This document shows positions 1,301 to 52,264 of a DNA stretch of 52,264 bases, piece after piece. Made by a program: the position numbers and the translations under genes. Origin of the DNA: a virus (taxonomy: Duplodnaviria > Caudoviricetes). Under the pieces are notes generated by a model. It saw only the letters and a program-made list of their open reading frames with translations. It was not told where the DNA came from and ran no database searches. The stretch spans positions 1-52,264 of IMG/VR virus record IMGVR_UViG_3300030419_005497. One strand, written 5' to 3'. Every line of letters starts with the position of its first letter. Position 1 is the stretch's first letter.

Positions 1301-1329
1301 TTTATATCAAAATTAAAGATCGCCGTCAA
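1301..1329 (-). promoter_or_regulatory. sigma70-type promoter giving a probably leaderless sprT mRNA
   Basis: TTGACG (1329-1324), 17 bp, TATAAA (1306-1301); ATG at 1294. Confidence 0.7.
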
Positions 1330-1444
1330 GGTTTTTCTTATGTTTTTCTTTTCTATTATAAGAACCCTTGCCCTTCTTTGTCCTATGCTCACGGGATGCA
1401 CTTCCCATGAAGCCTTCGGGGTTTACTCTCGCTTTTGTTTTCAT
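1313..1444 (-). CDS. arfA: ArfA-like alternative ribosome rescue factor (43 aa, not in ORF track)
   Basis: MKTKARVNPEGFMGSASREHRTKKGKGSYNRKEKHKKNLDGDL*; contains KKGKGSYxRKxKH, the hallmark motif of E. coli ArfA; own promoter directly upstream. Confidence 0.65.
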   Translation of the reverse strand: MKTKARVNPEGFMGSASREHRTKKGKGSYNRKEKHKKNLDGDL

Positions 1445-1450
1445 GTGTTT

Positions 1451-1494
1451 ATTAAACACTAAAAAAGACTTTAGTACAAGGATTATTTTCGTAA
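1451..1494 (-). promoter_or_regulatory. early promoter with TTACGAAAATAAT element (leaderless arfA-like mRNA)
   Basis: TTGTAC (1479-1474), 17 bp, TTTAAT (1456-1451); ATG at 1444. Confidence 0.6.
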
Positions 1495-1506
1495 GTTATT
1501 CACACG

Positions 1507-1542
1507 TTTAGGGTCAATTACATACACTATTCAGGGTCGAAA
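1507..1542 (+). repeat. left copy of ~36-bp imperfect direct repeat with two AGGGTCRA motifs
   Basis: tttagggtcaattacatacactattcagggtcgaaa versus 2782-2818 tttagggtcaatatacacacactatttagggtcgaaa. Confidence 0.85.
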
Positions 1543-1771
1543 TTTTGAAAAAGTCCCTTTGGAAAATTATAACATGATTTTGTTTCGTATGTCAACACTA
1601 TTTTACTAACAAAAAAAGCCCTTGTTGTTAATAAGTTTATATTGACTATTAAATAAAAGTATGATCCGCGATACGAAAAAAAGTTTTCAAATAATGAAAA
1701 AAAAGCTTGGCATGAAAAGAATCTATGATAAGATTGATCTCAGTTAAGGGAATTACAAACCACTAAACATT

Positions 1772-2695
1772 ATGCCAAAAATAATAAATCAAACTACTGA
1801 CTACGACTACGAAGTGACTACCCGTCCTTTGTACGACCTCACCCCTGAGCAAGTCACTTTGCTTCAGGACAATGACGCTGATGCCACTTTTGCTGGTGTC
1901 TACGGCAACTTCCGCGAAGATGTAGATTCTGCCTTGGGCATTGTCACTGAGCGTTACGCCCTAGTTCAAAACTCTGAAGTAGTAGGAAACATCGAGGAAT
2001 CTTTAGATCGCCGTGGACTGTTGGACATGGTTGAAAAGGATTTCAATGTAGTTGACTACGGCAAGCGTTTCTACGCTCGTTACAGCATCAAGAATCCCAA
2101 GTCTGAATTCAACTTCACCCCTGCAAAGGGCGACAATGTTGGAGTCAGTTTCACCTTTCAAAATAGCTTTGATTGCACAAAGCGTTTGAATGTGGCTCTT
2201 GGTTTCTTGCGCTTGGTTTGCACCAACGGCATGACTTCACTCTCTAAACAGTACGAAGTCAATTTCCGCCACCAAAACGGAATCAATGTTGGAGCAATCG
2301 GTGACGGCATCGACGCTGCACTGGACAAGCTCACCGACCAGACAAAGGTATTCCAGCGTCTCGCAAATACCGGAATCGACCATGAGAAGGGTTTGAACAT
2401 CCTTGAAAACCTCACCAAGAAAAAGGTGATCTCTGGCGCGGTACGCGATAACATCGCTGCAATCTGGAACGCGCAAGCTCAAGACGAAACCATTCACGAT
2501 GGTTTGGACAGGGATCGCAACCTGTGGAACCTCTACAACGCCGCGACTCAGCATATCACTCGCGTGATCGAGCCAAAGCGTTTCGAGCAAGCCTCCCGAC
2601 TCAGCGGGTCGATCCTGTCGGCCTTTGATCGGGCGGCGACCACTAAAAAGTTCTTGACTGACATCACCCAAGAGGCTAAAGTCGAGAACAACTAG
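1772..2695 (+). CDS. DUF932/DUF945-family phage protein
   Basis: LGIVTERYALVQN, NSFD...RLVCTNGM and NLWNLYNAAT motifs; only + strand gene in the early region. Confidence 0.85.
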   Translation: MPKIINQTTDYDYEVTTRPLYDLTPEQVTLLQDNDADATFAGVYGNFREDVDSALGIVTERYALVQNSEVVGNIEESLDRRGLLDMVEKDFNVVDYGKRFYARYSIKNPKSEFNFTPAKGDNVGVSFTFQNSFDCTKRLNVALGFLRLVCTNGMTSLSKQYEVNFRHQNGINVGAIGDGIDAALDKLTDQTKVFQRLANTGIDHEKGLNILENLTKKKVISGAVRDNIAAIWNAQAQDETIHDGLDRDRNLWNLYNAATQHITRVIEPKRFEQASRLSGSILSAFDRAATTKKFLTDITQEAKVENN

Positions 2696-2735
2696 GGGGA
2701 GCGATCTCCTAGTTTTTTGTACTGCTCATAACATT

Positions 2736-2769
2736 GGGGAGGGGGTCGAAAGATCCCCTCTTCTTTTTG
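2736..2769 (+). terminator. intrinsic terminator
   Basis: gggagggggtc-GAAA-gatcccctcttc followed by ttttt. Confidence 0.85.
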
Positions 2770-2781
2770 TCTAAAATTTTT

Positions 2782-2874
2782 TTTAGGGTCAATATACACA
2801 CACTATTTAGGGTCGAAAAATACTACGTACACGTACTATTTTTTAGGGTCGAAATTTAGTACGTACACGTACTA
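2782..2874 (+). repeat. right copy of direct repeat extended into a 3-unit TTAGGGTC array with an 18-bp palindrome
   Basis: AGGGTCRA at 2785, 2809, 2845; tacgtacacgtacta twice; tagtacgt-ac-acgtacta palindrome at 2857-2874. Confidence 0.85.
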
Positions 2875-2957
2875 CCTAGAGCCATTTTTTTTAGTATAAA
2901 AACCTTACGCATTTTTTCCCCCTTTATTTGGCCGAATCCTGAAAAGTGGGCGATTTT

Positions 2958-3314
2958 TTAATCTATGTAGTCATCACACTTCCATTCTAGAAGTTCAAGT
3001 ATATCTGAGAAGGTAGGAGTCGATGGTTTAAATTTTTTTGTAATCAAATCCTCAAGCTCACCCTTCTTTATTATTAGTGATGCCATATTACCAAAGCCAG
3101 TTTTATTTGATGCTATTATTTTTCTTTCTCCAAAATCTAATTCATAATACGTTTCACCCATGCACATTGATAACAATCCAGATTTATATTTAAAGTCAAC
3201 AAGGTAATTATCTGAGTGCGCTATCCAGTGTCCTTCATTCACCTGCATAGCAGAGGAGAAAACCATTCCCCCTCGCAACTGAGATCCAAACTCAACGTCC
3301 ACAAATTGCAGCAT
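2958..3314 (-). CDS. hypothetical protein
   Basis: 118-aa ORF overlapping the ruvB stop. Confidence 0.6.
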   Translation of the reverse strand: MLQFVDVEFGSQLRGGMVFSSAMQVNEGHWIAHSDNYLVDFKYKSGLLSMCMGETYYELDFGERKIIASNKTGFGNMASLIIKKGELEDLITKKFKPSTPTFSDILELLEWKCDDYID

Positions 3315-4236
3315 AATCCTTGAGGTACTTCTGACCCGCCTTGGTTAAGCTGCGACCAGTTGGCTTCACTTGCATGAGACTCTTTTTAAGAAGGAAAATC
3401 TCAAGGTTAGTTCTAACGGCAGTTGCCTCCATGTCTAATTTGGAAGCAAGGTGAGTAAGGCTAAATTCAGTCCCACTCCCCAACGCTTGCAGTAACCGAA
3501 TCTCACTTGCGGTAAGGCCAAGGGGCTTTACATTAAGGAAATCACAAAGAGTGTCCCAATCTTTCATGGTCATGCTCTTTTTCTTACGAGCCTTTAGGTA
3601 GCTAAAGATACGATTGGCGTACTGAACCGCTTTGCGAGGCTCGTCACGGAGAACACTCGCGATACTCTCAAGGACTCCTTTCGCGAATTTGATCTTCGGC
3701 AAATTACCCTTGACGATTTTGGCAAGCTGATCGGGAGTGTAATGATCCAAGTCAATCTTCCAAAGGCGACTCATTAAAGCATGGAAAACCTTATGAGGCT
3801 CGGTTGTCGCAAACAAAAACGTGTGGCGAGTAAAATCAATTTGGATGTCAACATCGCCATGAGAATAACTGGTTCGGTTATTCTTATTGTCTGCAAGCAT
3901 AGTCAGAAGGGCAGTCTGAACATCCATCGGAAGCTCATGAGCCTCATCGATAAGGACGCAACACTCCCCGCCCATCACATCTCTGGCAATAACGTCAGCC
4001 ATAAACTGATCGAGGTTACGCCATGAGGAGGCGGTCTTGACCACGAACCTTTTAGTCGTCCGATGTTTCTGCATTGCGACTCCCAGCGCAGTAGCAAAAG
4101 CAGTCTTGCCATGACCGCGAGGCGCAATGAACATCAAATTGGGCAGAAGATTGCTATTCTTCCAATCATCAAACAAGAAGTTTAATGTTTTTCTAGGCCC
4201 ACGTTGACCTATGAACTCGGTGAATATATCTTTCAT
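3292..4236 (-). CDS. ruvB: Holliday junction branch-migration AAA+ ATPase RuvB-like
   Basis: EFIGQ, Walker A APRGHGKT, Walker B LIDEAH, FATT, SRL arginine finger, C-terminal wHTH with E.FL...GR.LT. Confidence 0.9.
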   Translation of the reverse strand: MKDIFTEFIGQRGPRKTLNFLFDDWKNSNLLPNLMFIAPRGHGKTAFATALGVAMQKHRTTKRFVVKTASSWRNLDQFMADVIARDVMGGECCVLIDEAHELPMDVQTALLTMLADNKNNRTSYSHGDVDIQIDFTRHTFLFATTEPHKVFHALMSRLWKIDLDHYTPDQLAKIVKGNLPKIKFAKGVLESIASVLRDEPRKAVQYANRIFSYLKARKKKSMTMKDWDTLCDFLNVKPLGLTASEIRLLQALGSGTEFSLTHLASKLDMEATAVRTNLEIFLLKKSLMQVKPTGRSLTKAGQKYLKDYAAICGR

Positions 4237-4275
4237 AATGTTATTTTGTATAATCTATTTGTATCAAATTTGAAA

Positions 4276-4563
4276 CTACCAGTCAACCTTATTCTTCTTG
4301 GGTAAGCTACTTACAGCTTCTTCGGTTGCCTCATCGTTCTTGGCATCGACGGTGACTTGGTTGTCCACAACGCTACGAGTTTTGTAGTCGGCGTTCATGG
4401 GCGATGTTTCTAGCTTCAAAACTTCAGCGAACTTCCTACTAATAGGAATCATCGCGTCAGAGCATCCCTTGTTGATCTTATTAAAAAGTTCGTCGGGCTT
4501 AACTAGAACAAAGCTGGTCGCTCCTTTGACCTTGCCTCTGTAATTTCCAGTTCTCTTACTCAT
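4276..4563 (-). CDS. hypothetical basic protein
   Basis: 95-aa ORF with own promoter TTGACA (4598-4593), 17 bp, TAACAT (4575-4570). Confidence 0.75.
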   Translation of the reverse strand: MSKRTGNYRGKVKGATSFVLVKPDELFNKINKGCSDAMIPISRKFAEVLKLETSPMNADYKTRSVVDNQVTVDAKNDEATEEAVSSLPKKNKVDW

Positions 4564-4610
4564 GGATGTATGTTAATTTATTTCGTAATTGATGTCAATG
4601 ATTTTTTTTC

Positions 4611-4802
4611 TTAATCATTAAATCTTTCTTCTGCTAATTCGTTAGTTAGTTTAACTACCTCTTTAGATACTCGATCCCACTGGGGGTCATCGTCTTTATG
4701 ATTGACGATGATTTCGTATTTCCATTTAGGTAGTGATTGAACGACATCGTTCCATGCCTTTTCGTATACTATGGCCGCAGGGGCTTGTCCAGTAGCTTTC
4801 AT
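4611..4802 (-). CDS. hypothetical protein
   Basis: 63-aa ORF; promoter TTGACT, 16 bp, TAGGAT at 4838-4811. Confidence 0.65.
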   Translation of the reverse strand: MKATGQAPAAIVYEKAWNDVVQSLPKWKYEIIVNHKDDDPQWDRVSKEVVKLTNELAEERFND

Positions 4803-5028
4803 CTACATAGATCCTAAATCATTTAAATTTAAAGTCAATGTAAAAACATAATTATTTTCGTAAGTTTATTTAACTATAGAAAAGGATAGGTATAAACGCG
4901 AAAGAACCAAAATAATCCAAATTTAAAATGCAGTTATTCTACTATGAAAATAGCTGTCAAGTCAAGATATTTTTACAATAGAAAAACTTTCAGGGTCGAA
5001 AAATTTTCCTTGCATTTCTCTCTGTGTA

Positions 5029-5782: not shown

Positions 5783-5826
5783 AAAAAGGAGAGGAAGTCT
5801 AAATCACCTTTTTAAACCTCCTCCCC
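5783..5826 (-). terminator. intrinsic terminator closing the structured RNA
   Basis: minus strand ggggaggaggtttaaa/tttagacttcctctcc stem with G-U pairs, followed by a U6 tract. Confidence 0.8.
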
Positions 5827-6092: not shown

Positions 6093-6123
6093 TACAAATA
6101 TGTAAGATGTAGGTTGTGTAATG

Positions 6124-12502: not shown

Positions 12503-12579
12503 TGGTTGGCCCGTAGGGACTTGAACCCTAAACCTTGGAATTATGAGTTCCCTGCTCTAACCGATTGAGCTACGGGCCA
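12503..12579 (-). tRNA. tRNA with CAT anticodon, probably tRNA-Ile2 (alternatively elongator Met)
   Basis: TGGCCCG TA GCTC..GAGC A GGGAA CT CAT AA TTCCA..TAGGG TTCAAGT CCCTA CGGGCCA A CCA; C4/C5 in acceptor stem as in Ile2; encoded CCA. Confidence 0.9.
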
Positions 12580-13033
12580 TCCAGATTGGTCTGGGGGTCT
12601 TGCCCCATTTGGCAAAATACGATTTCTCTCCGTTGTAGTAATCTCGATATGCTTGAACCGGATCTTCTTTTTTATACTCATCTGGCATCGCTTGAGCAAA
12701 CGGAGTCAAGCCAACGTCAGGTAAATTAAGTTTGTCGTAGTGGTTATCGCACCAATCAATAGCATCAAGAGATTTATGGATTTTACCGTAACGCTCAAAG
12801 TATTCTTCGCACAACTGATATGCGTGAGTAAGTAACCACTCATAGTTGGATTTGGACTCACGCGCCCATTTAGTGCAAGGATGATTATAGTATGCTCTAC
12901 GGTACGGAGCTTTACCATTTTCAAAGGCAGAGCATAACATTTGTGCAGACTCAAGAATCATTTTAACAACGTGCTTATCGCACAACTGACGCGCTGCCGT
13001 CTTGGGGTCTTTATGGACAATGAATATATTCAT
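12557..13033 (-). CDS. pyrimidine-dimer DNA glycosylase (DenV-related)-family phage protein
   Basis: MNIF...D.HVVKMILESAQML, NHPCTKWARES..NY.WL, TPFAQAMPD.Y...V.AYR.YY motifs; start taken at ATG 13033. Confidence 0.75.
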   Translation of the reverse strand: MNIFIVHKDPKTAARQLCDKHVVKMILESAQMLCSAFENGKAPYRRAYYNHPCTKWARESKSNYEWLLTHAYQLCEEYFERYGKIHKSLDAIDWCDNHYDKLNLPDVGLTPFAQAMPDEYKKEDPVQAYRDYYNGEKSYFAKWGKTPRPIWMARSSIG

Positions 13034-13392
13034 TCGTAATAGCCGATAGTCTTGACAAAGGCTGGAGTATAATCTCCCACATAAGAACATTCAACATTAT
13101 ATGAAAAGTATTGCTCTGCTTCGTCATACCAAGAAATAAAATCTACGATACCATCCCCCTTGCCTTCGGAGGGGTCACTAGCAATAAAGTCCTCCATCAA
13201 AAGATCAAGGCATTTATAGTAGCAGTAACAAGCTCTTGGGTTATCCCCAAAGGTTTCTGAAACCCCAATGAAAGCCTCATCGAAACCGTCAGCGAGGAGG
13301 ATTTTACCCGAAAGTTCGGGGTAATGCTCCTCGATGTAGCCTTCTATCCTCCTTCTTTCTTTTGAGCTATTCTTTCCCATCGGCAAACTCAT
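13030..13392 (-). CDS. conserved phage hypothetical protein
   Basis: ADGFDEAFIGV...EA.QYF.YN...YVG..TP.F pattern. Confidence 0.75.
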   Translation of the reverse strand: MSLPMGKNSSKERRRIEGYIEEHYPELSGKILLADGFDEAFIGVSETFGDNPRACYCYYKCLDLLMEDFIASDPSEGKGDGIVDFISWYDEAEQYFSYNVECSYVGDYTPAFVKTIGYYE

Positions 13393-22096: not shown

Positions 22097-22858
22097 CTAA
22101 ATGCCAAAATAGTTTTTCTCATGCTCCCACATTAACTTATTCATATCCTCAAAAGTCTTTATTTCGCTATCTTTTCGACACATATACTCGTATGCCTTTT
22201 TGTCGCTCGACCATTTTTCACCATCCCAAAACTCAAAACCTGTAAAATCTCTTTTGTATATGCAAGTTTCTTCGTATCCCGACATCATATACAGATAATC
22301 CATTCCATTTTCTTTCGCGTATTCTATCTCTTTTATGATGCTATATTTCCCAAGTGAAATTGATGGTTTGTGATAATCCCAACAAAATTGAAGTCCCGTC
22401 ATAGAGTTTGAACCAGAGTAAGTTCTCAATAAGGTGAACGCTCTCAAAACTCCTTCGTCGTAATACTGGAAAACTATCTTCTTATCCTTGTCTATTTCCT
22501 CCTTTAGCGATAAGGCTCCAAGGTCATCGCTAAAGCCTCTGTGCTTCATGTATCTATCGTACAAATCTTGAAGCTCATCAATGTTTGCGTTCTCCAGAGA
22601 CTTTATTTCGTGAGATACGCTTGGACATCGACGTAATATCCTATTTGTTTTTTTGTTATATTTAAGTTCTGAAACCTTGAGTCTTACTTGGCGAGCTTGA
22701 AACCATAATCTGGGAGTTTTTTTAGTCCACTCATCAACTGCCCAGCCATTTTTAAGGGCGTGATCTTCTTCGTTTTCTTCCACTTCTGCATATGCGTTAG
22801 CATAAATCAGACTCATGTCTGTCATCTTGCCAGTGATATGGTGAAAGAATATTTTCAT
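22097..22858 (-). CDS. ATE1/Bpt-like aminoacyl-tRNA--protein transferase (GNAT-fold ATE_C domain)
   Basis: AL..GW...R; LY.RY...R; WDY..P..SLGKYSIIKEIEYAK..G..YLY....Y.....YK..F...E matches the ATE C-terminal SLG.Y..L..I...YLY...YK pattern. Confidence 0.72.
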   Translation of the reverse strand: MKIFFHHITGKMTDMSLIYANAYAEVEENEEDHALKNGWAVDEWTKKTPRLWFQARQVRLKVSELKYNKKTNRILRRCPSVSHEIKSLENANIDELQDLYDRYMKHRGFSDDLGALSLKEEIDKDKKIVFQYYDEGVLRAFTLLRTYSGSNSMTGLQFCWDYHKPSISLGKYSIIKEIEYAKENGMDYLYMMSGYEETCIYKRDFTGFEFWDGEKWSSDKKAYEYMCRKDSEIKTFEDMNKLMWEHEKNYFGI

Positions 22859-22932
22859 TTAGGGCAACAAATTGGACATTGCTCCCCTTTTGATTTATTG
22901 CAGTCGCAGGTTTTATCTTTACTCTTTTTCAT
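22855..22932 (-). CDS. 25-aa Cys-rich peptide (not in ORF track)
   Basis: MKKSKDKTCDCNKSKGEQCPICCPK*; its TGA overlaps the ATG of the ATE-like gene. Confidence 0.5.
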   Translation of the reverse strand: MKKSKDKTCDCNKSKGEQCPICCPK

Positions 22933-23170
22933 TTTTCTTCTTCCAAGGTCTAGGGTTACTTTTTGGACTGGATTGATAGGGGATACCGAAAGTTTCATTT
23001 CCACATACTCTTAAATCGTTAGAATCAAAATGTTTTACCATACCTGAATCGGTAAGGAAAACGACCCAAATGGTATTAAAATCTGGACTGTAATCAATTA
23101 CTATTTGCGCCCACCCCTCCCCCAGAGGGGTTTCGACTGGTATAGGAGGGTTTAGTTGTATCATGCTCAT
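22919..23170 (-). CDS. conserved phage hypothetical protein
   Basis: QLNPPIPV.TP.G.G.A...IDY......WV pattern; GTGTAA motif upstream. Confidence 0.75.
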   Translation of the reverse strand: MSMIQLNPPIPVETPLGEGWAQIVIDYSPDFNTIWVVFLTDSGMVKHFDSNDLRVCGNETFGIPYQSSPKSNPRPWKKKNEKE

Positions 23171-24743: not shown

Positions 24744-25346
24744 TTAAGTGATCCAATTATTGAAAGTTATTATTATGTATCTAGAGCCTTTGGTAACTGG
24801 TCGCGCTCCATGATAATGAGTAAACATCCCTTGATGAAACATCATGTAACCAACTTTAGCTTTAACTAATCTTTTAGCGTCCAAAAACCAAGTCCCTCCA
24901 CCTTCAAAGTTATTATTAAGGGTCAGCATCGTCGTGACGCTGCTAAAATCGTGATGTAACCCCAAGTGAGCTTGTTTGTCTGGGGTATATTTGGCTATAA
25001 AACTTTCAGGGGTAAATCTTTGGTCTAGTTTTTGATCCCCCAAAATATCATCAAGGTGATAGGCGTGAATTATAGCTGGGTAAACTATTTTAAATAAAAC
25101 ATGATTGTATAGTACATCTAAATTGCCTATATCACTGAGAAGCATATCATAGGTTGCGTAATCAGTATTCGTTTCTCTCTGACCGCTATCCCAAAGATTT
25201 TTTTCTTCTGCCGCTTTTATTATTTTCTCGCAGATTTCCTCGTTGAATAATTGAAATCCATAGCAACCATAAAAAATCTCGTCTAAAACGAGATCCCATT
25301 CACCTTTTAATACAGGGGGAGATATAAATTTAGAAAAGTCCTCCAT
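24744..25346 (-). CDS. 2OG-Fe(II) oxygenase (procollagen lysyl-hydroxylase C-terminal-like)
   Basis: F.AKY.P..Q..L..HHD.S..T....LN..FEGGGT.F, H..HGARPVTKG.RY. Confidence 0.88.
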   Translation of the reverse strand: MEDFSKFISPPVLKGEWDLVLDEIFYGCYGFQLFNEEICEKIIKAAEEKNLWDSGQRETNTDYATYDMLLSDIGNLDVLYNHVLFKIVYPAIIHAYHLDDILGDQKLDQRFTPESFIAKYTPDKQAHLGLHHDFSSVTTMLTLNNNFEGGGTWFLDAKRLVKAKVGYMMFHQGMFTHYHGARPVTKGSRYIIITFNNWIT

Positions 25347-25714
25347 TATTTATTAGGATCTTCTTTATTTCTCAGATCGAAAAGCTCATCACTTACCTTA
25401 TTATACTCCCCCTTCCAGTATTCGTTAAGTGCATCTATTTGGACTTCTAATTGGAGATTTGTTACCTGTGACCCGCGATACAAAGCCTCCCAATAATCTC
25501 TAGCCTGTTTCATTTTCCATAACTGCTCCTTTATTTCTCTGTTGTCAGAATCTGCCTCATTGAGCATCCTCACATAGATGCTAGTAGACTTATTGTTATT
25601 TTCCAAAGCCTTATCTGTGACGTAATGATAATAAAGCTGATAACAATAAAAAATAATTATCCATAGTGAAATCAGAGCTAAAAATCTTTGATTTATGGTG
25701 AGTCCTTTAAACAT
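25346..25714 (-). CDS. membrane-anchored coiled-coil protein
   Basis: N-terminal transmembrane segment followed by heptad-rich region. Confidence 0.65.
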   Translation of the reverse strand: MFKGLTINQRFLALISLWIIIFYCYQLYYHYVTDKALENNNKSTSIYVRMLNEADSDNREIKEQLWKMKQARDYWEALYRGSQVTNLQLEVQIDALNEYWKGEYNKVSDELFDLRNKEDPNK

Positions 25715-26198
25715 ATTCTATCAATGCTCCATCTGCTGTATGGTCAATATAGTCTGGATGAATCCATTTTGTTTCCTTATAGGGATTTAACTTGGCCCAA
25801 TAATTATAAATATGTTTAGGTGCGACCAATGGGTCTTGTGACCTCTCATGAAAAACTTCGTAAGCGATTTCAGTTTCAAACGAAACTACGCGACTATGAA
25901 TATCTATAAAGTCAACCGCTTTCCCAAAACCATAAAAACGTAATTGACCGTTAATCCACTTGTCACCCATATATCCCTCGTCTTTTATGCCTGTATGATC
26001 ACCGCCAAAAATGCCCTTTTTATATTCTTCTAGCGGCCAATATTTTTGGTTTTGAATATAGCAGTTTACAAAGTAAGGATATTTAAGTTTTAAATGATCT
26101 GTGCCTTTTGGGCGGCTATACAGGGTATCTGCTTTAAGAGCTAGGGTCGTTCCCGCTGTGAGTGCTGGGACTGTTTTGATGAATTCTCTCCTGTTCAT
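25707..26198 (-). CDS. protein with twin-arginine (Tat)-like signal peptide
   Basis: MNRREFIK followed by hydrophobic/Ala stretch ending ALKA. Confidence 0.65.
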   Translation of the reverse strand: MNRREFIKTVPALTAGTTLALKADTLYSRPKGTDHLKLKYPYFVNCYIQNQKYWPLEEYKKGIFGGDHTGIKDEGYMGDKWINGQLRFYGFGKAVDFIDIHSRVVSFETEIAYEVFHERSQDPLVAPKHIYNYWAKLNPYKETKWIHPDYIDHTADGALIEYV

Positions 26199-26698
26199 TA
26201 TTTGGTTCTTTCATAGCCAAATGGCGCATTTGGCCAAGGGTTTATGCCCACCGAAACTCTTTGCCCTCTAATAACTGGCGAAACCCCATGAAACATAACG
26301 CTAGGAAATATTATCATACTATTTGTTTTTGGCTCGACGGTTAAATGATCCGTGTAAAAAGTACCACCATTTAATTCCTTGATCAAAGGGTAATATACCA
26401 TACTTACCATTGGGTGCTTTTCCTCCCCTGTTTCAAGAAAGCGTACTTCGTCTCTATCTACATGGTAAGAAACATAATCAGTGTAATTATGATGCATCTC
26501 AAAACCAGCCATATCCGACAAATCTACATAATCATTTACTATTTTGAGGATCGCCTTTACAGAATCGAATTTTAAATTTAAAAGATTTTGATTGTACCAA
26601 AAGTCCCCCAAGCCATTTGTTTCTGCATCATCGTAGTTATGATTTAAGATCTCCTCTCTTAGCTCACCACTTAAAACATCATGTAAAATTCGTATCAT
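26198..26698 (-). CDS. 2OG-Fe(II) oxygenase
   Basis: HVDRD, S.V.YP....GG, P..N...IF....HGV..V..G.R.S. Confidence 0.85.
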   Translation of the reverse strand: MIRILHDVLSGELREEILNHNYDDAETNGLGDFWYNQNLLNLKFDSVKAILKIVNDYVDLSDMAGFEMHHNYTDYVSYHVDRDEVRFLETGEEKHPMVSMVYYPLIKELNGGTFYTDHLTVEPKTNSMIIFPSVMFHGVSPVIRGQRVSVGINPWPNAPFGYERTK

Positions 26699-26701
26699 GA
26701 A

Positions 26702-27049
26702 CTACTCTTTCCAAGCTATCTCTATTAAGTTTTCCCCAAAAAATTCTTCAGTGTATTTAACAGGTGTTTTAGGATCAAAAGCTCTGCAAGTATAAACATC
26801 CACAGAAAAGAAGCAGGGCTTTCTATCGTCCCAAGCGTAAATGTGCATACCACTTTCCTTCCAATGAACGTAAGCGCACCAACCATAATCGGGATCATAG
26901 TTGCAGAAAGGGGCAGTTGCTTCAGTCATGTTTAGGACTTTAGTGATTTCACGGCAATACCTATCCATATCTTCAGGCTTGAAAGGGTTATGAAGAGTGC
27001 CTTCAATAACAATTCTTTGTCTGCATATGTCAGGAGCTAGGTCTTTCAT
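26702..27049 (-). CDS. S-adenosylmethionine decarboxylase-like proenzyme
   Basis: ES pyruvoyl-cleavage site (WKESGMHIYAW) and SVDVYTC motif. Confidence 0.7.
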   Translation of the reverse strand: MKDLAPDICRQRIVIEGTLHNPFKPEDMDRYCREITKVLNMTEATAPFCNYDPDYGWCAYVHWKESGMHIYAWDDRKPCFFSVDVYTCRAFDPKTPVKYTEEFFGENLIEIAWKE

Positions 27050-30801: not shown

Positions 30802-31338
30802 TTACCTCAATTCTTTCCTTAGTAGCCTCCAACGGTCACTATCGATCTTCTTTTCCCCAGAGTCAATCTTCTTAATCATATCTAGGACTTCATCTATGCT
30901 ATCATAGATATACTTGTCTATTTTCATACCCATCATCCAAAGAGGTGTTTGAGATTTGCCGCCCTGCATGGAAATAAAAATAGGCTTTTTCATCCTGACT
31001 GCGGTAACGATTTCTTCCGCACTTCCCCAACTTGCAACTTCGGGGAGTAAATGAGCTATAATGAAATCAGATCTATCAACAAGATTAAGGTCGTAGCTTC
31101 TAACGATACTCATTCTTTCTACTACATCGCTATAATGACCATTGGTCATATCTTCAGCCATTCTAAGGCGAGCAGACTCATCCTCGTCTACATCCTTAAC
31201 AAAAGGTTTTCGATAGGGGTTAAACGTAATAATATTTAATTTTTGAAGCTCGTCTTCGACTTTGACCCTCCAATCTTGGCCATCTGCATACTGCATATGG
31301 CCGACTAAATACGTTCTGGTTCTTTCTAATAGGTTCAC
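30802..31338 (-). CDS. nucleoside 2-deoxyribosyltransferase-like protein
   Basis: YL.G.M....DWR, F.P, DL..V..SD.I, S.G...E...A...KP. Confidence 0.8.
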   Translation of the reverse strand: MNLLERTRTYLVGHMQYADGQDWRVKVEDELQKLNIITFNPYRKPFVKDVDEDESARLRMAEDMTNGHYSDVVERMSIVRSYDLNLVDRSDFIIAHLLPEVASWGSAEEIVTAVRMKKPIFISMQGGKSQTPLWMMGMKIDKYIYDSIDEVLDMIKKIDSGEKKIDSDRWRLLRKELR

Positions 31339-31339
31339 A

Positions 31340-31540
31340 TTACCTCCAGAGTCTATCTTCTGCCGCTTGTTGCTTGGCTGCGTACTTGGCCTTTCTTTTC
31401 TTCTCGTAATTCACTCGACTCTTCTTTTGGTAAAACTTTCTATCTCTTACCTCTATCAGAGTTTTTTCCTTCGCTGTTTTTCTTCTCAGGGCTTTTAAGG
31501 CTAGTTCTAGATGGCCTCCTTTTACGTTTACTTCTGTCAT
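31340..31540 (-). CDS. rpsU: ribosomal protein bS21
   Basis: V.V.....E.AL..L.RK......E.R.R..Y.K.S....EK.RKA, 66 aa, basic. Confidence 0.8.
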   Translation of the reverse strand: MTEVNVKGGHLELALKALRRKTAKEKTLIEVRDRKFYQKKSRVNYEKKRKAKYAAKQQAAEDRLWR

Positions 31541-37990: not shown

Positions 37991-38623
37991 CTAGCTTTTT
38001 TTGCTAATATACTCTGACTCTCTCACCCATTTTACCCCAATCCATTTAACTCCTTTTTTTACGGGTAACGATGAGTGTATGCTTTTTTCTTCGGGCTTGT
38101 TGTCGGAAAAATTAGACCAAAATAAAACCCTACCTATCCTTGGCTCTATTTTAAAATTATCTAATTTAGGAAATTCAGTTTCGCCCCCATCATAAGAATT
38201 ATTAAGGTAAAATAAAATGCTATAAACCCTTTGTCCTCCCCTGCTAATGGATTCATCGTAATTTTCCGACCCCTTTATAAAAAAGTCGTAATGCGGAACA
38301 TAGTGTCCACCTTCAGAATATCTTATTATGTTTAAATGTTCTTGGTTTTCTACAGGTAAGCAAGTAACGGTTGAAGTTATCTTTTCTATTTTTTCTATTA
38401 CGTCATAGATCTCTTGTTGAGAGTTGTAATGAGATTTTACAAGAAGTCTTTCCTTGGCCTCCCTAGACTTGGAGTCTTTCGTTGGTCCCTTGTCGTAGTC
38501 TAGAACCGTTACCTCTTCTAAATGTGGGCGAGCTTCTTTAGTAAGAAGAGAGCACTCCTCTGTTGACAGTAAGCCGTCGCATACCCAGAGAAATTCTCCT
38601 ATTTGAGAAAAATTATGAAGCAC
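37991..38623 (-). CDS. prolyl 4-hydroxylase-like 2OG-Fe(II) oxygenase
   Basis: E.L...RY..G..Y.PHYD, GGQR..S.L.YLN...GGET.FP, H.S.PV..G.KW...KW. Confidence 0.9.
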   Translation of the reverse strand: MLHNFSQIGEFLWVCDGLLSTEECSLLTKEARPHLEEVTVLDYDKGPTKDSKSREAKERLLVKSHYNSQQEIYDVIEKIEKITSTVTCLPVENQEHLNIIRYSEGGHYVPHYDFFIKGSENYDESISRGGQRVYSILFYLNNSYDGGETEFPKLDNFKIEPRIGRVLFWSNFSDNKPEEKSIHSSLPVKKGVKWIGVKWVRESEYISKKS

Positions 38624-40612: not shown

Positions 40613-41047
40613 TTAAACGCCAGAGCTTCCGAAACCTCCTTGGCCTCTTTCGCTGTCATTAAGATCTTCGACTTCATCAAACTCTACAGAAAAGCAAACT
40701 TCGAAAATTATTTGAGCGATTCTATCCCCAGCGTCTATGTCAATAGGTTTAGATCCCAAATTAATCAGAACTACCCCAATCTCATTCCTATACCCACTAT
40801 CAATTACGCCAGCCAATACATCCACTCCTTTTTTAACGGCCAAGCCACTCCTTGGCGCAATTCTTCCATAAAAGCCATTAGGGATGGAGATGCAAATTCC
40901 AGTTTTGATTACTCTCCTTTCGGAAGGTTTTATATGGTGGTCTTCCACGGAATAAAGGTCATATCCCGCATCTGAGTCATTTGCTTGAGTGGGAGTAATT
41001 GCTTTATCTGATATTTTTTTTATTTGTACAGGCCAATCTGTTTTCAT
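40613..41047 (-). CDS. dut: trimeric dUTPase
   Basis: AGYDL, RIAPRSG, GVIDSGYR, GDRIAQ, RGQGGFGSSG (motifs 1-5). Confidence 0.95.
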   Translation of the reverse strand: MKTDWPVQIKKISDKAITPTQANDSDAGYDLYSVEDHHIKPSERRVIKTGICISIPNGFYGRIAPRSGLAVKKGVDVLAGVIDSGYRNEIGVVLINLGSKPIDIDAGDRIAQIIFEVCFSVEFDEVEDLNDSERGQGGFGSSGV

Positions 41048-41049: not shown

Positions 41050-41652
41050 CTAGTCAATTTTATACCCATGATGGCTTAAAACTTCAATACATAAATTTAT
41101 AAATTCCCCCGTTGTCATGTCGCCTTTTGCCATATTAGCTTCCTTGCAAGTTACCCCAAGATTGTCTAGCTCGTTAGATCCACCTTTTGATACTGGATGT
41201 ATATGGTCTAACTGGTATTCGGCTTTATTTGAAAGGTCTACTGGCCTACCTGTAAGATAACATTCTGGATTTTCTCCAACTTTTTCCAAGAAGTCTTTAA
41301 CGCCAAAATTTCTTTTGCACCTATTCCTTCTGACTCCATCGTTAGCTCTTGATTTATACATCTGAACTTTCCTTTGTTGGGGGGAATGCTTTGTTACTTT
41401 CTTTTTCTTCTCTCTCTTTAGCTTATAAGCTGGAATATGATTTCTTACTTGAAGATAGTTTGTTATTTTATCGCCTACAACGCCAGCAATTGTTGAGCTT
41501 CTCCTTTTCAGGTTTCTTTTCAGCTGCTTTCTTTTAACTTCGGGATTACAATGATAAGCTATTGTTCCTTTAGAGCATCCTAACTCTGCAACTATTTGAT
41601 TATAGTTGTACCCTTTTCTTCTGAGTTCAAAAATTTGAGTTTTTAAATCCAT
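41050..41652 (-). CDS. HNH endonuclease with N-terminal HTH (probable homing endonuclease)
   Basis: G.NY.QI..ELGCSKGTIAYH; C..TG...DHIHP.SKGG.N..DNL...C..AN..K. Confidence 0.85.
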   Translation of the reverse strand: MDLKTQIFELRRKGYNYNQIVAELGCSKGTIAYHCNPEVKRKQLKRNLKRRSSTIAGVVGDKITNYLQVRNHIPAYKLKREKKKKVTKHSPQQRKVQMYKSRANDGVRRNRCKRNFGVKDFLEKVGENPECYLTGRPVDLSNKAEYQLDHIHPVSKGGSNELDNLGVTCKEANMAKGDMTTGEFINLCIEVLSHHGYKID

Positions 41653-41654: not shown

Positions 41655-41731
41655 TGGTACGTCCAGAGGGATTCGAACCCCCGACCCCAAGTTTAGAAGA
41701 CTCGTGCTCTATCCAACTGAGCTATGGACGC
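41655..41731 (-). tRNA. tRNA-Arg (TCT)
   Basis: GCGTCCA TA GCTC..GAGC A CGAGT CT TCT AA ACTTG..GGTTCGAATCC..TGGACGT A CCA. Confidence 0.95.
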
Positions 41732-44124: not shown

Positions 44125-44467
44125 AAAAAAACCTCCCTATTAATAAATACACTAAAAGGGAAACTAAATTAACTAACGGAAAAAAATAAATGAGGTCAAA
44201 CACTAAGCAAAAAACAAGACTTAACCACACGGACAAACAAGTCTGACAGGTGACGAGGGCCACTACAAAAGAATGTTCTTTATATTTAACTCTTAGAAAA
44301 GAAAGATAGTCTAAAATGTGGTCAGGATCTTCTTTGTCGTAAATATGAACTCCAAACCAAGTATGAAGATTAAAGTATCTGACATAATATTCAAAAGCGT
44401 CACTTTCAAACCAAATCACCATAATCAGAACTATCCAACCACAGCAAAGTGAAAAACTCTCAATCAT
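44108..44467 (-). CDS. membrane protein with CxxC (DUF1360-like)
   Basis: LVTCQTCLSVWL followed by transmembrane segments. Confidence 0.6.
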   Translation of the reverse strand: MIESFSLCCGWIVLIMVIWFESDAFEYYVRYFNLHTWFGVHIYDKEDPDHILDYLSFLRVKYKEHSFVVALVTCQTCLSVWLSLVFCLVFDLIYFFPLVNLVSLLVYLLIGRFFYANGD

Positions 44468-44879
44468 ATTTTAGGTCCATTTCCTCTGTCTTAGTAAACA
44501 GCAGTCTAGCTACTTCATCCCCTTTTTCAATAAAGAAAGTATTAGTATCGCCAAAAAAATGAGCCGAAGCTAAGGACGTTTTATTTTTTATAAATAAAAA
44601 GTCAGGTAAAGAATTATTAATAAAAACCACCTCTATGTTTTGGCCACTAGAAAAATAACTTACCGGAAAGAGGGCTCCGCTTGTATAGAGTAAATCCGGT
44701 ATGGGCAATACCTGCGCCATGATCCCGCTTGGCATCGTCAAAGAAATATCGAAAGACACCGCTGTTCTTTCGCATGGGTCTATTCTGAATCTTCTAGGAG
44801 AAAGAAGATGAAAGATATTGCCATCAACCCTAGCTGGGTCAATGGCTTGCTTGGACAGTTTTTTTACTGTGAAAAACAT
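44460..44879 (-). CDS. degenerate dUTPase-fold paralog
   Basis: VKKLS..A..P, I.P.ER..V, IEKGDEVARLLF resemble the dUTPase scaffold, but catalytic motifs 2, 3 and 5 are absent. Confidence 0.6.
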   Translation of the reverse strand: MFFTVKKLSKQAIDPARVDGNIFHLLSPRRFRIDPCERTAVSFDISLTMPSGIMAQVLPIPDLLYTSGALFPVSYFSSGQNIEVVFINNSLPDFLFIKNKTSLASAHFFGDTNTFFIEKGDEVARLLFTKTEEMDLKYD

Positions 44880-46150: not shown

Positions 46151-46157
46151 CATTATC

Positions 46158-47117: not shown

Positions 47118-47120
47118 GAG

Positions 47121-48197: not shown

Positions 48198-48201
48198 GCT
48201 C

Positions 48202-48555: not shown

Positions 48556-48654
48556 GCCTATCCGTACACCTTTTTTCTTCTCTTCAAATTAAAAGTTCTT
48601 CTGAGTTACTTTTTGTGAAACTTGTCACTAAAAAGCTGTAAATTCTATTACATC

Positions 48655-51123
48655 ATGAAACAAGATTCTCAGATCATACACGTAAAAAAAAGAAACGGGA
48701 GACTACAAAAACTAAACATAGATAAGATAAACCTTTGCGCCACATGGGCTTGTAGCGACCTAGAGAATGTATCAGCAAGTGAGGTAGTGCTAGATGCTCA
48801 CGTTCAAATTTATGATAAAATCACCACTGATGAGATAGACAAGGCTCTCATCATGAGTGCTCGCCAAAAAATAGAAAAGGAGCCCAACTATTCTTATGTA
48901 GCGGCTAGGCTTTTATTGTCTTCTCTATATAAGGAAGTATTTGGAGAAAGCGTAGATAAAGATACATACGATCATCAATATAAAATATCTTTCATAAGGA
49001 ATACTAAAAAACTAGTCAAAGAAGAAATCCTCGATGAGAAGTTACTAGACTTCGACTTAAAGCATCTTTCAGAACACCTAAAACTAGAAAGAGATTACAA
49101 ATTTAAATACCTTGGGCTTCAGATACTAAGTGATAGATATTTACATCACATTAATGAAAGAATAATGGAGACACCCCAAGCTTTCTGGATGCGTGTATCT
49201 ATGGGGCTTGCTCTTAACGAAGAAAACAAAAATGAAAAAGCTATTGAGTTTTATAATACGTTGTCTCAGTTTTATCTGTGTTGCTCTACTCCTACCCTCT
49301 TTAATAGTGGTAGTACTCACAGTCAGCTTTCCAGTTGTTATCTTAATACTTTTGACGATTCAATTGATGGAATTTTTGAGGGTTTGTGGCAAGAAGCTAG
49401 AAAGTCCAAATTTGCTGGAGGCCTAGGCTTTGACGTAAGCAGCTTTAGGGCGGCTAATTCTTACGTAAAAGGAACCAACGGCAAGTCTTCTGGCTTAATC
49501 CCTTGGCTTAAAATTTATAACGACACCTTAATTGCAGTAGACCAAGGAGGCAAAAGGCCGGGAGCAGGGTGCGCTTATCTTGAACCTTGGCACTTAGATA
49601 TAGAAGATTTTCTAGACCTCAAGAAAAACACCGGAGACGAACGCAGAAGGTGTCATGATATGAACACCGCAAACTGGATTCCCGATTTATTTATCAGAAG
49701 AGTTCAAGAGGATGGCGATTGGTATTTATTTTCCCCATCCGATGTAAGAGACCTTCACGAAATGCATGGGGATAAATTTGATAAAAGGTACAAAAAATAC
49801 TGCAAGCTCGCAGACAATGGCGAACTCGAAAATTTCAAGGTCATAAAGGCTAAAGACCTATGGAAAAGAATGCTAAGGGCTCTTTTTGAAACGGGGCATC
49901 CTTGGATGACCTTTAAAGATAACGCTAACATGCGGTACTCTAACAGTCATGAAGGAGTAGTTCATAGTTCAAATCTTTGCACCGAGATATTCCTACACAC
50001 AAAACCTTCTAGATTTAACGAGGGTGAAAAAACAGAGGTTGGGGAAACTGCCGTGTGCAACCTAAGTTCTGTAAATTTAAAACAGCATATTAAAGAGGAT
50101 AATACATTAGACTTTGATCAGTTGGCAAAAACCATAGAAGTCCAAATGCGTATGCTGGACAATGTAATCGATTTAAATTTTTACCCAACCAAAGAGGCCG
50201 AAAACTCGAACTTAAAACATAGACCCGTTGGCGCTGGAAGCATGGGGTGGGCAGATGTATTTCATGCTTACGAGGTAGACTTTTCAAGCGATGACGCAGT
50301 TAAGTTCTCTGATGAACTCTACGAATTCATTTCTTATCATTGCATCTTAAATTCTAATAAACTATCCAAAGAAAGAGGCTCTTATTCTACATACGATGGA
50401 TCTTTATGGAGTAAGGATATACTTCCCATAGATACATATAAAAACCTAATGGATTACCTAGGCGAAAAACCCTTAATTCATAGAGGAAAAAAGTTTTGCC
50501 CAGAACTAGACTGGAAAACTCTAAGAGGCGACATAAAAGAGCACGGTATGCGTAACAGTAACACTATGGCAATTGCCCCAACGGCAACTATCTCTTACAT
50601 TCAAGGATGTTCTCCTTGTATCGAGCCAGACTTCTCAGTTCTTTTTGTCTACGAAAACAAAAGCGGCAATCTAACCATTGTTAATGAATGGTTTATAAAA
50701 GAATGCAAAAAAAGAGGAATTTGGAATCAAGGCTTAATTGACGCCATAAAATCAGTAGATGGAGACATATCCCTACTTAACGGAGACATACCAGAAGACT
50801 TAAAGCATAGATTTTCAACTTGCTTCGAAAGAGATCAGTTCAAACTTATAGATTCAGCAGCAGCTAAACAAAAGTGGATTGATATGGGGCAATCTTTGAA
50901 CCTATTCAACAAAGAGACATCACTAAAATACTTGAATGACTTATATATTCATGCTAGAAACAGAGGCTTGAAAAGCACCTACTACCTGAGAAACCTATCA
51001 GCTAGTAAAATAGAGAAATCGACGAATACACCCATGCAAGAAATAGAGGGCAAGCACGAAGCAATAGGGGAAATGGCAAAGGCTTGCAGTATTCTAGATC
51101 CAACATGCGAAAGCTGCCAATAA
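48655..51123 (+). CDS. nrdA: ribonucleotide reductase class I alpha subunit with ATP cone
   Basis: VKKRNG ATP cone, STPTLFNSG, QLSSCYL, SSNLCTEI, AVCNL, AIAPTATIS, KSTYYLR, C-terminal CESCQ. Confidence 0.97.
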   Translation: MKQDSQIIHVKKRNGRLQKLNIDKINLCATWACSDLENVSASEVVLDAHVQIYDKITTDEIDKALIMSARQKIEKEPNYSYVAARLLLSSLYKEVFGESVDKDTYDHQYKISFIRNTKKLVKEEILDEKLLDFDLKHLSEHLKLERDYKFKYLGLQILSDRYLHHINERIMETPQAFWMRVSMGLALNEENKNEKAIEFYNTLSQFYLCCSTPTLFNSGSTHSQLSSCYLNTFDDSIDGIFEGLWQEARKSKFAGGLGFDVSSFRAANSYVKGTNGKSSGLIPWLKIYNDTLIAVDQGGKRPGAGCAYLEPWHLDIEDFLDLKKNTGDERRRCHDMNTANWIPDLFIRRVQEDGDWYLFSPSDVRDLHEMHGDKFDKRYKKYCKLADNGELENFKVIKAKDLWKRMLRALFETGHPWMTFKDNANMRYSNSHEGVVHSSNLCTEIFLHTKPSRFNEGEKTEVGETAVCNLSSVNLKQHIKEDNTLDFDQLAKTIEVQMRMLDNVIDLNFYPTKEAENSNLKHRPVGAGSMGWADVFHAYEVDFSSDDAVKFSDELYEFISYHCILNSNKLSKERGSYSTYDGSLWSKDILPIDTYKNLMDYLGEKPLIHRGKKFCPELDWKTLRGDIKEHGMRNSNTMAIAPTATISYIQGCSPCIEPDFSVLFVYENKSGNLTIVNEWFIKECKKRGIWNQGLIDAIKSVDGDISLLNGDIPEDLKHRFSTCFERDQFKLIDSAAAKQKWIDMGQSLNLFNKETSLKYLNDLYIHARNRGLKSTYYLRNLSASKIEKSTNTPMQEIEGKHEAIGEMAKACSILDPTCESCQ

Positions 51124-51124
51124 G

Positions 51125-52135
51125 ATGAGTAAAACCGGATTATTACTTGATGAAAACACAACTGGCGTAAACCAGATCCTCCCTCATAAACATCAATACG
51201 CTTGGGACCTATTTCTTAAAGGGGTAGCGAATAATTGGTCTCCAGCCGAAATAAACATGTCGGATGACGTAAAACAATGGAAAGGAGATGATTTATCCAA
51301 AGATGAAAAACTACTGGTTAAAAGATGCCTTGGCTTTTTCGCTGGAAGTGAGTCCTTGGTTGGCAATAATTTACTTCTTAATGTCGCGAAATGGATAACT
51401 GATGCGGAGTGCGGTCAATATATAATGAGACAAGCTTATGAAGAGTCTCTTCACAACTGGACAGTTGTAACTTGCTGCGATAGCTACTCATTGAAAATAT
51501 CAGAGGTATACGAAGCATACATTAATGTCCCCTCAATAAAAGCCAAAGACGAGTTTTTAATGGGGATAACCTCAGATATCAACAGGCAAGACTTCACTAC
51601 TAAGACGATAGAAGGGAAAAAAGAATTCCTCAGAAACTTAATTACATACTACATCGTATGCGAGGGAACCTTTTTCTTTAGTGGATTTGCTATGCTCTTG
51701 GCTCTTGGCAGACAAAACAAACTCCCCGGACTTTCTGATCAAATCAGATACACGTTAAGAGATGAAAGCCTACATATTCAATTTGGTACGTACCTAATCA
51801 ACACGATCAAAGAACAATACCCATCGGTGTGGACTAAAAAATTCGAAGAAGAAACAATTGAGCATATTAAAAAAGCCGTAGAGCTTGAGATACAATATGC
51901 CCACGACGTTCTTCCACGAGGCATTCTTGGCTTAAACGCCGAGATGTTTGTTGATTATATGCAGTATATTGGAAACAGAAGGCTTGAAGGTATTGGAATT
52001 GACTTTTCTTTCGAGAACGCTCAAAATCCGTTTCCTTGGCTGTCCGAAGTTGTTGACACTACAGCAATGACGAACTTCTTCGAAAGGAAAGTTAAAGATT
52101 ATCAAAGCTCTGGAGTTCTAGAGGATGATTTTTAA
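51125..52135 (+). CDS. nrdB: ribonucleotide reductase beta subunit, class Ic (R2c)-type signature
   Basis: FFAGSESLVGNN (Glu as first ligand), EESLHNWTV (Val at radical-Tyr position), EG.FF.SGF, RDESLH, NFFE..V..Y. Confidence 0.92.
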   Translation: MSKTGLLLDENTTGVNQILPHKHQYAWDLFLKGVANNWSPAEINMSDDVKQWKGDDLSKDEKLLVKRCLGFFAGSESLVGNNLLLNVAKWITDAECGQYIMRQAYEESLHNWTVVTCCDSYSLKISEVYEAYINVPSIKAKDEFLMGITSDINRQDFTTKTIEGKKEFLRNLITYYIVCEGTFFFSGFAMLLALGRQNKLPGLSDQIRYTLRDESLHIQFGTYLINTIKEQYPSVWTKKFEEETIEHIKKAVELEIQYAHDVLPRGILGLNAEMFVDYMQYIGNRRLEGIGIDFSFENAQNPFPWLSEVVDTTAMTNFFERKVKDYQSSGVLEDDF

Positions 52136-52152
52136 AGTGTAATGAATTTTAC

Positions 52153-52264
52153 GGGAGCGTACTGGTTTCGATTTAGAACCTTACGCAAGATTGCAAGCAG
52201 AGGATGATAGTCGGCCTCTTAAATCATCTATCAAGGTATTCAACTGCCAATAATGTTGATATGG
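52153..52264 (+). ncRNA. ssrA: tmRNA, 5' part (truncated by window end)
   Basis: GGGAGCGTACTGGTTTCGA 5' tRNA-like end; pseudoknot 1 agagg/cctct with gatag/ctatc; resume context CAACT-GCC giving tag A-N-N-V-D-M from 52246. Confidence 0.88.

Follow-up and report, generated by a model that had tools for sequence, protein, structure and literature searches.

Six translation-related elements, probably inherited separately, in a partial genome of an uncultured marine T4-like myophage

Translation-related genes are a described feature of marine pelagimyophage/Melnitz-like phages and huge phages. The available portions of their accounts report rpsU, tRNA-Arg(tct), ssrA, nrdAB and a 2-oxoglutarate-Fe (2OG-Fe) oxygenase in aquatic myophages of 140-210 kb, and transfer-messenger RNA (tmRNA) is described there as common but not defining in such aquatic phages (10.1101/2021.08.24.457595; PMC7162821; PMC6375957). 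Here we analyse the IMG/VR record IMGVR_UViG_3300030419_005497, the entire linear sequence of which (52,264 bp) is referred to below as the window, and in which an earlier note had listed six elements: an ArfA-like peptide, a tRNA with a CAT anticodon, an ATE1/Bpt-like aminoacyl-tRNA transferase, ribosomal protein bS21, tRNA-Arg(TCT) and tmRNA. All six are present with exact coordinates, as established by ARAGORN, Rfam, Pfam and TIGRFAM scans and, for the tmRNA, by a truncated match to RF00023; the gene identifications also hold, with the tRNAs, bS21 and the ATE_C-like transferase scoring above curated thresholds. Three of these elements (bS21, tRNA-Arg(TCT) and tmRNA) are already known for such phages. 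The searches below establish the identities, conservation and distribution of the elements, from which we infer every functional step, and we consider it rather probable that the six are real but separately inherited helper genes, each plugging into the host translation machinery.

The argument for separate inheritance comes from the distribution of the elements among relatives, which were defined by a marker unrelated to translation, a nucleoside-deoxyribosyltransferase-like (Ndt-like) gene at 30802-31338. The best 80 of 147 relatives were taken; the 44 of them with contigs measuring 60 kb or more, together with the complete relative G004, added by hand, gave a set of 45, and 36 of these were searched. 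tmRNA, counted above the Rfam cut-off, occurs in 26 of the 36 relatives and in 10 of the 11 with a completeness of 90% or more, and is close to core for this phage group. The ATE-like gene occurs in 12 of the 36 (4 of the 11 most complete), the ArfA-like gene in 7 (2 of the 11), and bS21 also in 7 (1 of the 11). All four genes were found together in no relative, three in one (G004), two in 17, one in 15 and none in 3, and Fisher tests across the 36 relatives returned no positively associated pair, with tmRNA and bS21 negatively associated (p=0.01). Only one of the 36 relatives has both the ArfA-like and the ATE-like gene, and it is not among the 11 most complete. The co-occurrence proposed as a check in the earlier note was borne out in part: tmRNA and the ArfA-like gene recur together in the window and five relatives (G015, G016, G020, G046 and G050), but no relative reproduces the full combination. 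In a second sample, drawn by the ArfA-like gene itself (26 loci, 25 of them searched), tmRNA was present in 5 of 25. The elements are dispersed among unrelated metabolic genes, and their positions differ among relatives. Since the genes are shuffled independently among relatives, the set seen in one window is not to be read as a system.

In Escherichia coli, arfA is a 72-codon gene expressed from a non-stop mRNA truncated by RNase III; the C-terminal basic tail of ArfA sits in the mRNA channel in ArfA-ribosome structures, and its N-terminal/central region contacts and activates RF2. According to the accessible part of one account, ArfA is made from non-stop mRNA generated by hairpin cleavage and is hence repressed by tmRNA (PMC10107115). 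The ArfA-like open reading frame (ORF) of the window (1313-1444, minus strand) encodes 43 aa, ends in its own TAA stop codon, and heads a leftward gene run, lying 19 nt upstream of an SprT-like protease gene. Its match to PF03889 scores 24.6 bits for a 48-aa form and 24.8 bits for the 43-aa form, not reaching the gathering cut-off of 25.5, and covers only profile positions 26-44, the KKGKGSYxRKxKH tail, leaving positions 1-25 unaligned. Homologues of 42-65 aa were recovered (15 at E<=0.01 among 17 candidates), and 15 of 16 family members match PF03889 at E<=0.001. The family core is nearly invariant (ARVNPEGFMGSASREH-K/R-V/T-KKGKGS-Y/F-xRxxKH), with G25, K26, G27, S28, R31, K34 and H35 unchanged throughout. 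Searched against the Protein Data Bank (PDB), the family profile found only ArfA chains at E <0.03, the best at E 0.0022 over the tail KKGKGSYMRKGKH, and the tail is identical to residues 27-45 of E. coli ArfA in the PDB chains at 13 of 19 positions. In a language-model Atlas search, 28 of the 30 nearest clusters were short ArfA-domain families. A fold of 1280-1470 was unexceptional (z = -1.84, with 8 of 200 shuffles as good), giving no sign that the ArfA-like mRNA contains a regulatory hairpin. With a stop codon of its own, the phage gene for this mini-ArfA should escape the repression by tmRNA that E. coli arfA undergoes.

For so short an ORF, coding capacity was assessed on the core, which could be extracted from 23 of 27 copies and yielded 18 distinct DNA sequences over 33 aligned codons. 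Third codon positions vary in 32 of the 33 codons, first positions in 18 and second positions in 19; no stops occur, and pairwise comparisons count 1735 synonymous versus 1207 non-synonymous differences. The opposite-strand frames of the same core contain stops, and change in them is mostly non-synonymous. The ArfA-like ORF is a real, conserved coding gene under purifying selection. Its family is represented by 32 loci in IMG/VR, 26 of them strong, and in cellular genomes (one genome each of 185,579 species) by only three metagenome-assembled genome (MAG) contigs, whose inconsistent taxonomy yielded no host assignment and one of which has the same phage module of DUF932, AAA and ArfA-like genes; on these searches the family appears essentially phage-borne. 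At 18 of the 26 strong viral loci (L116-L141), a DUF932 homologue is found within 3 kb of the ArfA-like gene, and 7 of the 26 have a RuvB-like AAA gene as a companion. In the window (region 1772-4236), DUF932 is divergent from the ArfA-like gene, and in most relatives it is co-directional with it.

The transferase gene (22097-22858, minus strand) encodes 253 aa and matches the ATE_C domain (PF04377) at 38.3 bits against a cut-off of 25. Eight NCBIfam models match, led by seven bacterial arginyltransferase (Bpt-type) models, the best at 50.5 bits, which does not reach the equivalog cut-off of 170. No match to ATE_N (PF04376) was found in the protein, residues 1-90 of which contain a single Cys, and ATE_N is absent from the five families matched at E<=0.001 by any of 79 aligned family members, 53 of which match ATE_C. 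The family itself is sizeable: a search of 1.84 billion representatives gave 290 clusters at E<=0.001. An AlphaFold model of the transferase has a predicted local distance difference test score (pLDDT) of 95.4 and a predicted template modelling score (pTM) of 0.90, and the top eight chains found with it by Foldseek are all ATE1 (human, Kluyveromyces lactis and yeast; E 2.2e-9 to 3.3e-8, TMq 0.56-0.60, 245-288 aligned columns). The next-best structures are aminoacyl-phosphatidylglycerol synthases and FemX (E 4e-8 to 2e-6), all of them users of aminoacyl-tRNA. The family profile matches yeast ATE1 at E 4.8e-10 with the common core sLGklS...YlYlG...YK. As judged from these profile matches and the predicted structure, the protein consists of a catalytic core of the ATE1/Bpt type and lacks the cysteine-bearing domain at the N-terminus. 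It has no tblastn match in GenBank phages and no PHROG match. Four 2OG-Fe(II) oxygenase genes and an S-adenosylmethionine (AdoMet)-decarboxylase-like gene lie near the transferase gene.

Directly upstream of the transferase gene is an ORF of 83 aa (22919-23170, minus strand) that belongs to no known family, with no Pfam or PHROG match and only unnamed clusters in an Atlas search. Relatives in which the transferase is only 48-67% identical have this ORF at 86-92% identity, and it was found at 4 of 8 transferase loci and in 3 of the 12 transferase-bearing records of the larger set. A complex prediction for the transferase and the 83-aa protein scored 0.00, which counts neither for nor against binding, and the ORF is no more than a possible partner of the transferase.

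The window ends inside a one-piece tmRNA gene, the first 112 nt of which (52153-52264, plus strand) match positions 1-115 of the 374 positions of RF00023 (E 5.9e-10). This portion contains the 5' strand of the acceptor arm (GGGAGCG), the first pseudoknot and the start of the tag reading frame, GCC AAT AAT GTT GAT ATG, encoding ANNVDM. Because the contig ends inside the gene, the match (28.6 bits) falls under the Rfam gathering cut-off of 47 and was reported neither by ARAGORN nor by a scan at the gathering threshold. It is identical at 106 of 112 positions to the start of the full-length tmRNA of G004 (131.2 bits), which has a tRNA-like domain with G3-U70 and CCA, the resume codon GCC (Ala) and a tag ending in AAVAA. 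Over 51351-52242, a stretch that takes in nrdB and the tmRNA start, a contig from sequencing run X1 shows 0 differences, and in the loose end of this contig the tag runs on as VDMAPSVDEA; X1 is possibly the source sample, so this contig is not independent support.

Among relatives, tmRNA tags end in AAVAA or AAMAA, and 11 of 16 ARAGORN tag calls have a ClpXP-type ...AA end. The called tags (relatives L010, L011 and L148-L169) are 11-31 aa long, mostly at least 15 aa, diverse, and none was recognised as known; examples are ANNNVDMAPSVAEADAILAKHGWAEEAAVAA, GKNKNRVVAFSPKAEQLALAA and AKAKNGESYDSTEILSFEEDLAMAA. Lengths reach 31 aa in the closest tmRNA relatives of the window, and tags of the window type contain a conserved internal EADAILAK-GW-EEAA stretch. 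These statements rest on the calls as printed, some of which seem truncated or misplaced relative to the alignment, and ARAGORN called a tmRNA in 14 of 24 fetched loci that Infernal placed above the cut-off. SmpB (PF01668) was found in none of five records searched, including the window and the 100% complete G004, so host SmpB would be required. nrdB adjoins the tmRNA in the window and lies beside none of the 26 tmRNA loci of relatives. In five more distant relatives (L148, L150, L155, L156 and L171), the tmRNA lies within ~0.7 kb of the Ndt-like gene.

bS21 (31340-31540, minus strand; 66 aa) matches PF01165 at 35.2 bits (cut-off 27) and TIGR00030 at 38.9 bits (cut-off 28.95), covering profile positions 1-53 of 55, and also matches phrog_21469. 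The gene ends 1 nt ahead of the Ndt-like gene, directly upstream of which it stands in both the window and G004, and it is missing from the corresponding syntenic slot in G001 and G002. From its contents across lineages, this slot upstream of the Ndt-like gene (window 30802-31540) looks like an accessory hot spot, occupied by bS21 in some lineages and by tmRNA in others, and sharing of the slot may explain the negative association between tmRNA and bS21. A loose Shine-Dalgarno-like 4-mer precedes only 15 of 70 window ORFs, and upstream regions are A/T-rich; the scarcity of such sites in the sequence suggests a host with Shine-Dalgarno-independent initiation. It also fits the idea, put forward in the available portions of two accounts, that initiation in hosts without Shine-Dalgarno pairing is biased by phage bS21 (PMC9723584; PMC6375957), and the bS21 of another phage is reported in part of one of these to enter 30S subunits in E. 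coli (PMC6375957).

Both tRNAs were called by ARAGORN and Rfam (cut-off 29) and have an encoded CCA: the tRNA with a CAT anticodon (12503-12579, minus strand) at 66.8 bits and tRNA-Arg(TCT) (41655-41731, minus strand) at 67.7 bits. Initiator tRNA-fMet is characterised by the absence of a 1:72 base pair and by an anticodon stem with three G-C pairs in succession. The CAT tRNA has a U1-A72 pair, and its anticodon stem reads G.A, G-C, G-C, A-U, A-U, with no triple G-C run. These features rule out an initiator and make it an elongator type, reading Met, or Ile2 if modified with lysidine. It also has C4-G69 and C5-G68, which we take to be determinants for lysidine formation; going by these two pairs, the tRNA could be an Ile2 tRNA decoding ATA. 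Codon counts over the 56 ORFs with 100 codons or more give AGA a 45% share of Arg codons and ATA a 38% share of Ile codons. Beside tRNA-Arg(TCT), an HNH endonuclease gene with an N-terminal helix-turn-helix (41050-41652, minus strand) begins 2 nt past the CCA, and is possibly a homing endonuclease gene inserted next to the tRNA. A pyrimidine-dimer glycosylase ORF (Pyr_excise, T4 endonuclease V type; 12557-13090, minus strand) shares 23 nt with the CAT tRNA, at the 5' end of the latter, in the longest-ORF call.

The earlier note had suggested that the six elements might form one coordinated programme, in which the phage would control initiation, rescue and both the C-terminal and N-terminal degron routes, and would possibly counter RNA-cleaving defences that stall ribosomes. 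Such a programme would account for the presence of all elements in a single 52-kb window, for the recurrence of tmRNA with the ArfA-like gene in five relatives and for the ClpXP-type end of 11 of the 16 tag calls, but we think it improbable. The note had itself named independent distribution among relatives as part of the grounds for abandoning the idea, and this is what the 36 relatives display, with all four genes in none, three in one, no positively associated pair and the ArfA-like and ATE-like genes together only once (in none of the 11 at least 90% complete). The genes are, moreover, scattered among unrelated metabolic genes and sited differently in relatives. The partner genes that the note had proposed to look for, smpB, clpS and release factors, did not turn up: like SmpB, ClpS and RF-1/RF-2 domain genes were found in none of the five records searched, including the complete G004. 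RNA ligase/kinase repair genes were likewise not found among the window ORFs scanned with Pfam and PHROG. Several points nevertheless weigh against separate inheritance or the functions that we favour. The window holds all elements within 52 kb, more than any sampled relative, and both ArfA-bearing records that are at least 90% complete also carry tmRNA, so that some functional pairing of tmRNA and the ArfA-like gene may exist. Most relatives are fragments (18-83% complete; only 11 of 36 reach at least 90%), which makes the absences soft, and relatives are phylogenetically related, so the samples in the Fisher tests are not independent. G004 entered the set by hand, having been found through the transferase. 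For the ArfA-like peptide, only the tail is common to ArfA, and the conserved N-terminal ARVNPEGFMGSASREH matches nothing known.

This last point bears on what the individual products do. The ArfA-like peptide could be a mimic, whose tail fills the vacant mRNA channel of stalled or free 30S or 70S particles with no activation of a release factor, so that host rescue would be blocked or ribosomes would be marked for phage use. The restriction of ArfA likeness to the channel-binding tail (profile positions 26-44), the different and strongly conserved N-terminal half, and the essentially phage-borne family (32 IMG/VR loci versus three MAG contigs) all agree with a mimic, but the nearest Atlas clusters are overwhelmingly ArfA-domain families (28 of 30), and several of these phages also have tmRNA, which suggests that rescue is wanted rather than blocked; we find this the least probable of the readings considered. 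A somewhat better, still minor, chance attaches to the possibility that the ATE1-like enzyme makes no N-degrons and transfers its amino acid to something other than a protein, for instance to phage DNA, to a lipid or to a precursor of the cell wall. A 2026 paper describes, in its available part, Mom of phage Mu as a GNAT enzyme that performs a Gly-tRNA-dependent DNA modification, with substrates that are not predictable from structure (PMC13219725), and with this precedent a protein acceptor cannot be assumed. The similarity of the model to aminoacyl-phosphatidylglycerol synthases and FemX, the missing ATE_N match in the protein and in the 79 aligned family members, the neighbouring 2OG-Fe(II) oxygenase and AdoMet-decarboxylase-like genes, and the fact that ClpS was not found in the searched records point the same way. 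The best structural and sequence matches, on the other hand, are to ATE1 (Foldseek E 2e-9; profile E 4.8e-10, with the common core), and seven of the eight NCBIfam matches, including the leading one, are Bpt-type arginyltransferases. A bolder combination, which taken as a whole we hold to be unlikely, would make the mini-ArfA and the long-tag tmRNA a rescue kit independent of host regulation and the transferase a new, ATE_N-less class of aminoacyl-tRNA transferase with a phage-specific target. The mini-ArfA would then have kept only the channel-sensing tail and gained a new release-factor-recruiting head, with its stop codon blocking the tmRNA switch-off, and the internal conserved sequence of the tag of up to 31 aa would do more than mark proteins for degradation.

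Under the preferred reading of separately inherited helper genes, each product would act through host components. bS21, by analogy with published work on phage bS21, would swap into host 30S subunits and favour initiation on phage mRNAs, most of which have no Shine-Dalgarno site. The two tRNAs would supply decoders for AGA and for either ATA or ATG, AGA and ATA being AT-rich codons that the phage uses heavily. Broken mRNAs and stalled complexes would be expected to be abundant during phage-driven mRNA decay; the tmRNA, together with host SmpB, alanyl-tRNA synthetase and proteases, would free ribosomes stalled on such mRNAs, and the mini-ArfA would thread its KGKGSY-R-K-KH tail into the empty mRNA channel and call in a host release factor. 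Because the N-terminal part of the mini-ArfA has no likeness to ArfA, this recruitment of a release factor is an assumption. The ATE1-like enzyme would take an amino acid from an aminoacyl-tRNA and pass it to an acceptor, for which the N-terminus of a protein is the most likely candidate.

The window has a GC content of 38.8% and a CheckV completeness of 33%, with minus-strand genes up to ~45.5 kb and plus-strand genes beyond. G004, with 158,301 bp and direct terminal repeats, has 38 of the 109 window ORFs in common, and its size suggests a genome of ~155-160 kb for the window phage. Family scans (five Pfam batches of 10 ORFs, three focal proteins and one PHROG batch) identified rIIA (phrog_612, E 1e-113), and, judged by its genes, the window is about one third of the genome of an uncultured marine T4-like myophage, from an accessory-gene region. 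The sequencing runs containing the stretch yielded it in marine or seawater metagenome contigs. A megablast of 25 kb of the window found no match in GenBank phages; the best nrdA matches there are 40-47% identical (46.8% at best), in Acinetobacter and Pseudomonas phages, and bS21 gave one weak match, to Pelagibacter phage Mosig. A cyanophage or pelagiphage identity, suggested by the resemblance of the tag start to the ANNIV type and by the weak bS21 match to phage Mosig, was considered and rejected as unsupported, with nrdA matches only at that level and to Acinetobacter and Pseudomonas phages.

Beyond the six elements and rIIA, the window has genes for a sigma-70 factor and a RuvB-like AAA protein. 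Nucleotide metabolism is represented by nrdA, nrdB, a GMP reductase/IMPDH-type gene, dCMP deaminase, two dUTPase-like genes, inorganic pyrophosphatase and the Ndt-like gene. The dUTPase family thus appears twice (40613-41047 and 44460-44879, minus strand), with one full-length (E 2e-40) and one divergent (E 7.7e-8) match. Sugar genes include a phosphomannomutase, a UDP-glucose dehydrogenase-like gene, a cytidylyltransferase and a glycosyltransferase, and the window also has four 2OG-Fe(II) oxygenases, the AdoMet-decarboxylase-like gene and a phosphopantetheinyl transferase. The oxygenases and the AdoMet-decarboxylase-like gene near the transferase, with the sugar-nucleotide genes and the phosphopantetheinyl transferase sited elsewhere in the window, together could form a DNA- or surface-modification repertoire (regions 24744-27049 and 37991-38623). 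Other genes encode a trypsin-like protease, the SprT-like protease, DUF932 and the HNH endonuclease.

Retuning of host translation by phages is a known theme, within which the mini-ArfA and ATE-like genes both form sizeable families in marine viral contigs. Neither a phage mini-ArfA nor a phage ATE_N-less ATE1-like family was reported in the open literature searched, supplementary tables, which possibly list them, aside, and both families are apparently new. If active, the 43-aa peptide would be among the smallest rescue factors and would offer a natural experiment on how much of ArfA is needed; its activity would also point to ribosome stalling as a genuine bottleneck when abundant marine bacteria are infected.

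Compared with the pelagimyophage/Melnitz-like and huge phages, the window has the same kinds of genes, namely bS21, tRNA-Arg(TCT), tmRNA, nrdAB and a 2OG-Fe oxygenase, as far as the available portions of those accounts describe them. The same portions make no mention of ArfA-like or ATE-like genes; they describe a two-piece tmRNA in Melnitz, whereas that of the window is one-piece with a long tag, and SmpB in some huge phages, whereas none was found in the records searched here. Relative to ATE1/Bpt transferases, the phage enzyme has the ATE_C domain, an ATE1-like two-lobed GNAT fold over most of its length and the core motif of yeast ATE1, but differs in having no ATE_N match, one Cys in its first 90 residues and scores far below the NCBIfam cut-offs. 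The searched phage records depart from the bacterial tmRNA-SmpB system in that no SmpB gene was found in them and in the long (to 31 aa), diverse tags called by ARAGORN, while the tmRNA of G004, homologous to that of the window, agrees with the bacterial molecule in its tRNA-like domain with G3-U70 and CCA, its Ala resume codon GCC and its AAVAA tag end. In relation to the ArfA of beta- and gammaproteobacteria (PF03889), the phage peptide is set apart by its length of 43 aa, its own stop codon, the lack of an exceptional hairpin, an unrelated N-terminal half and its carriage by phages, but, like ArfA, it is a small basic peptide with the C-terminal motif KKGKGSYxRKxKH.

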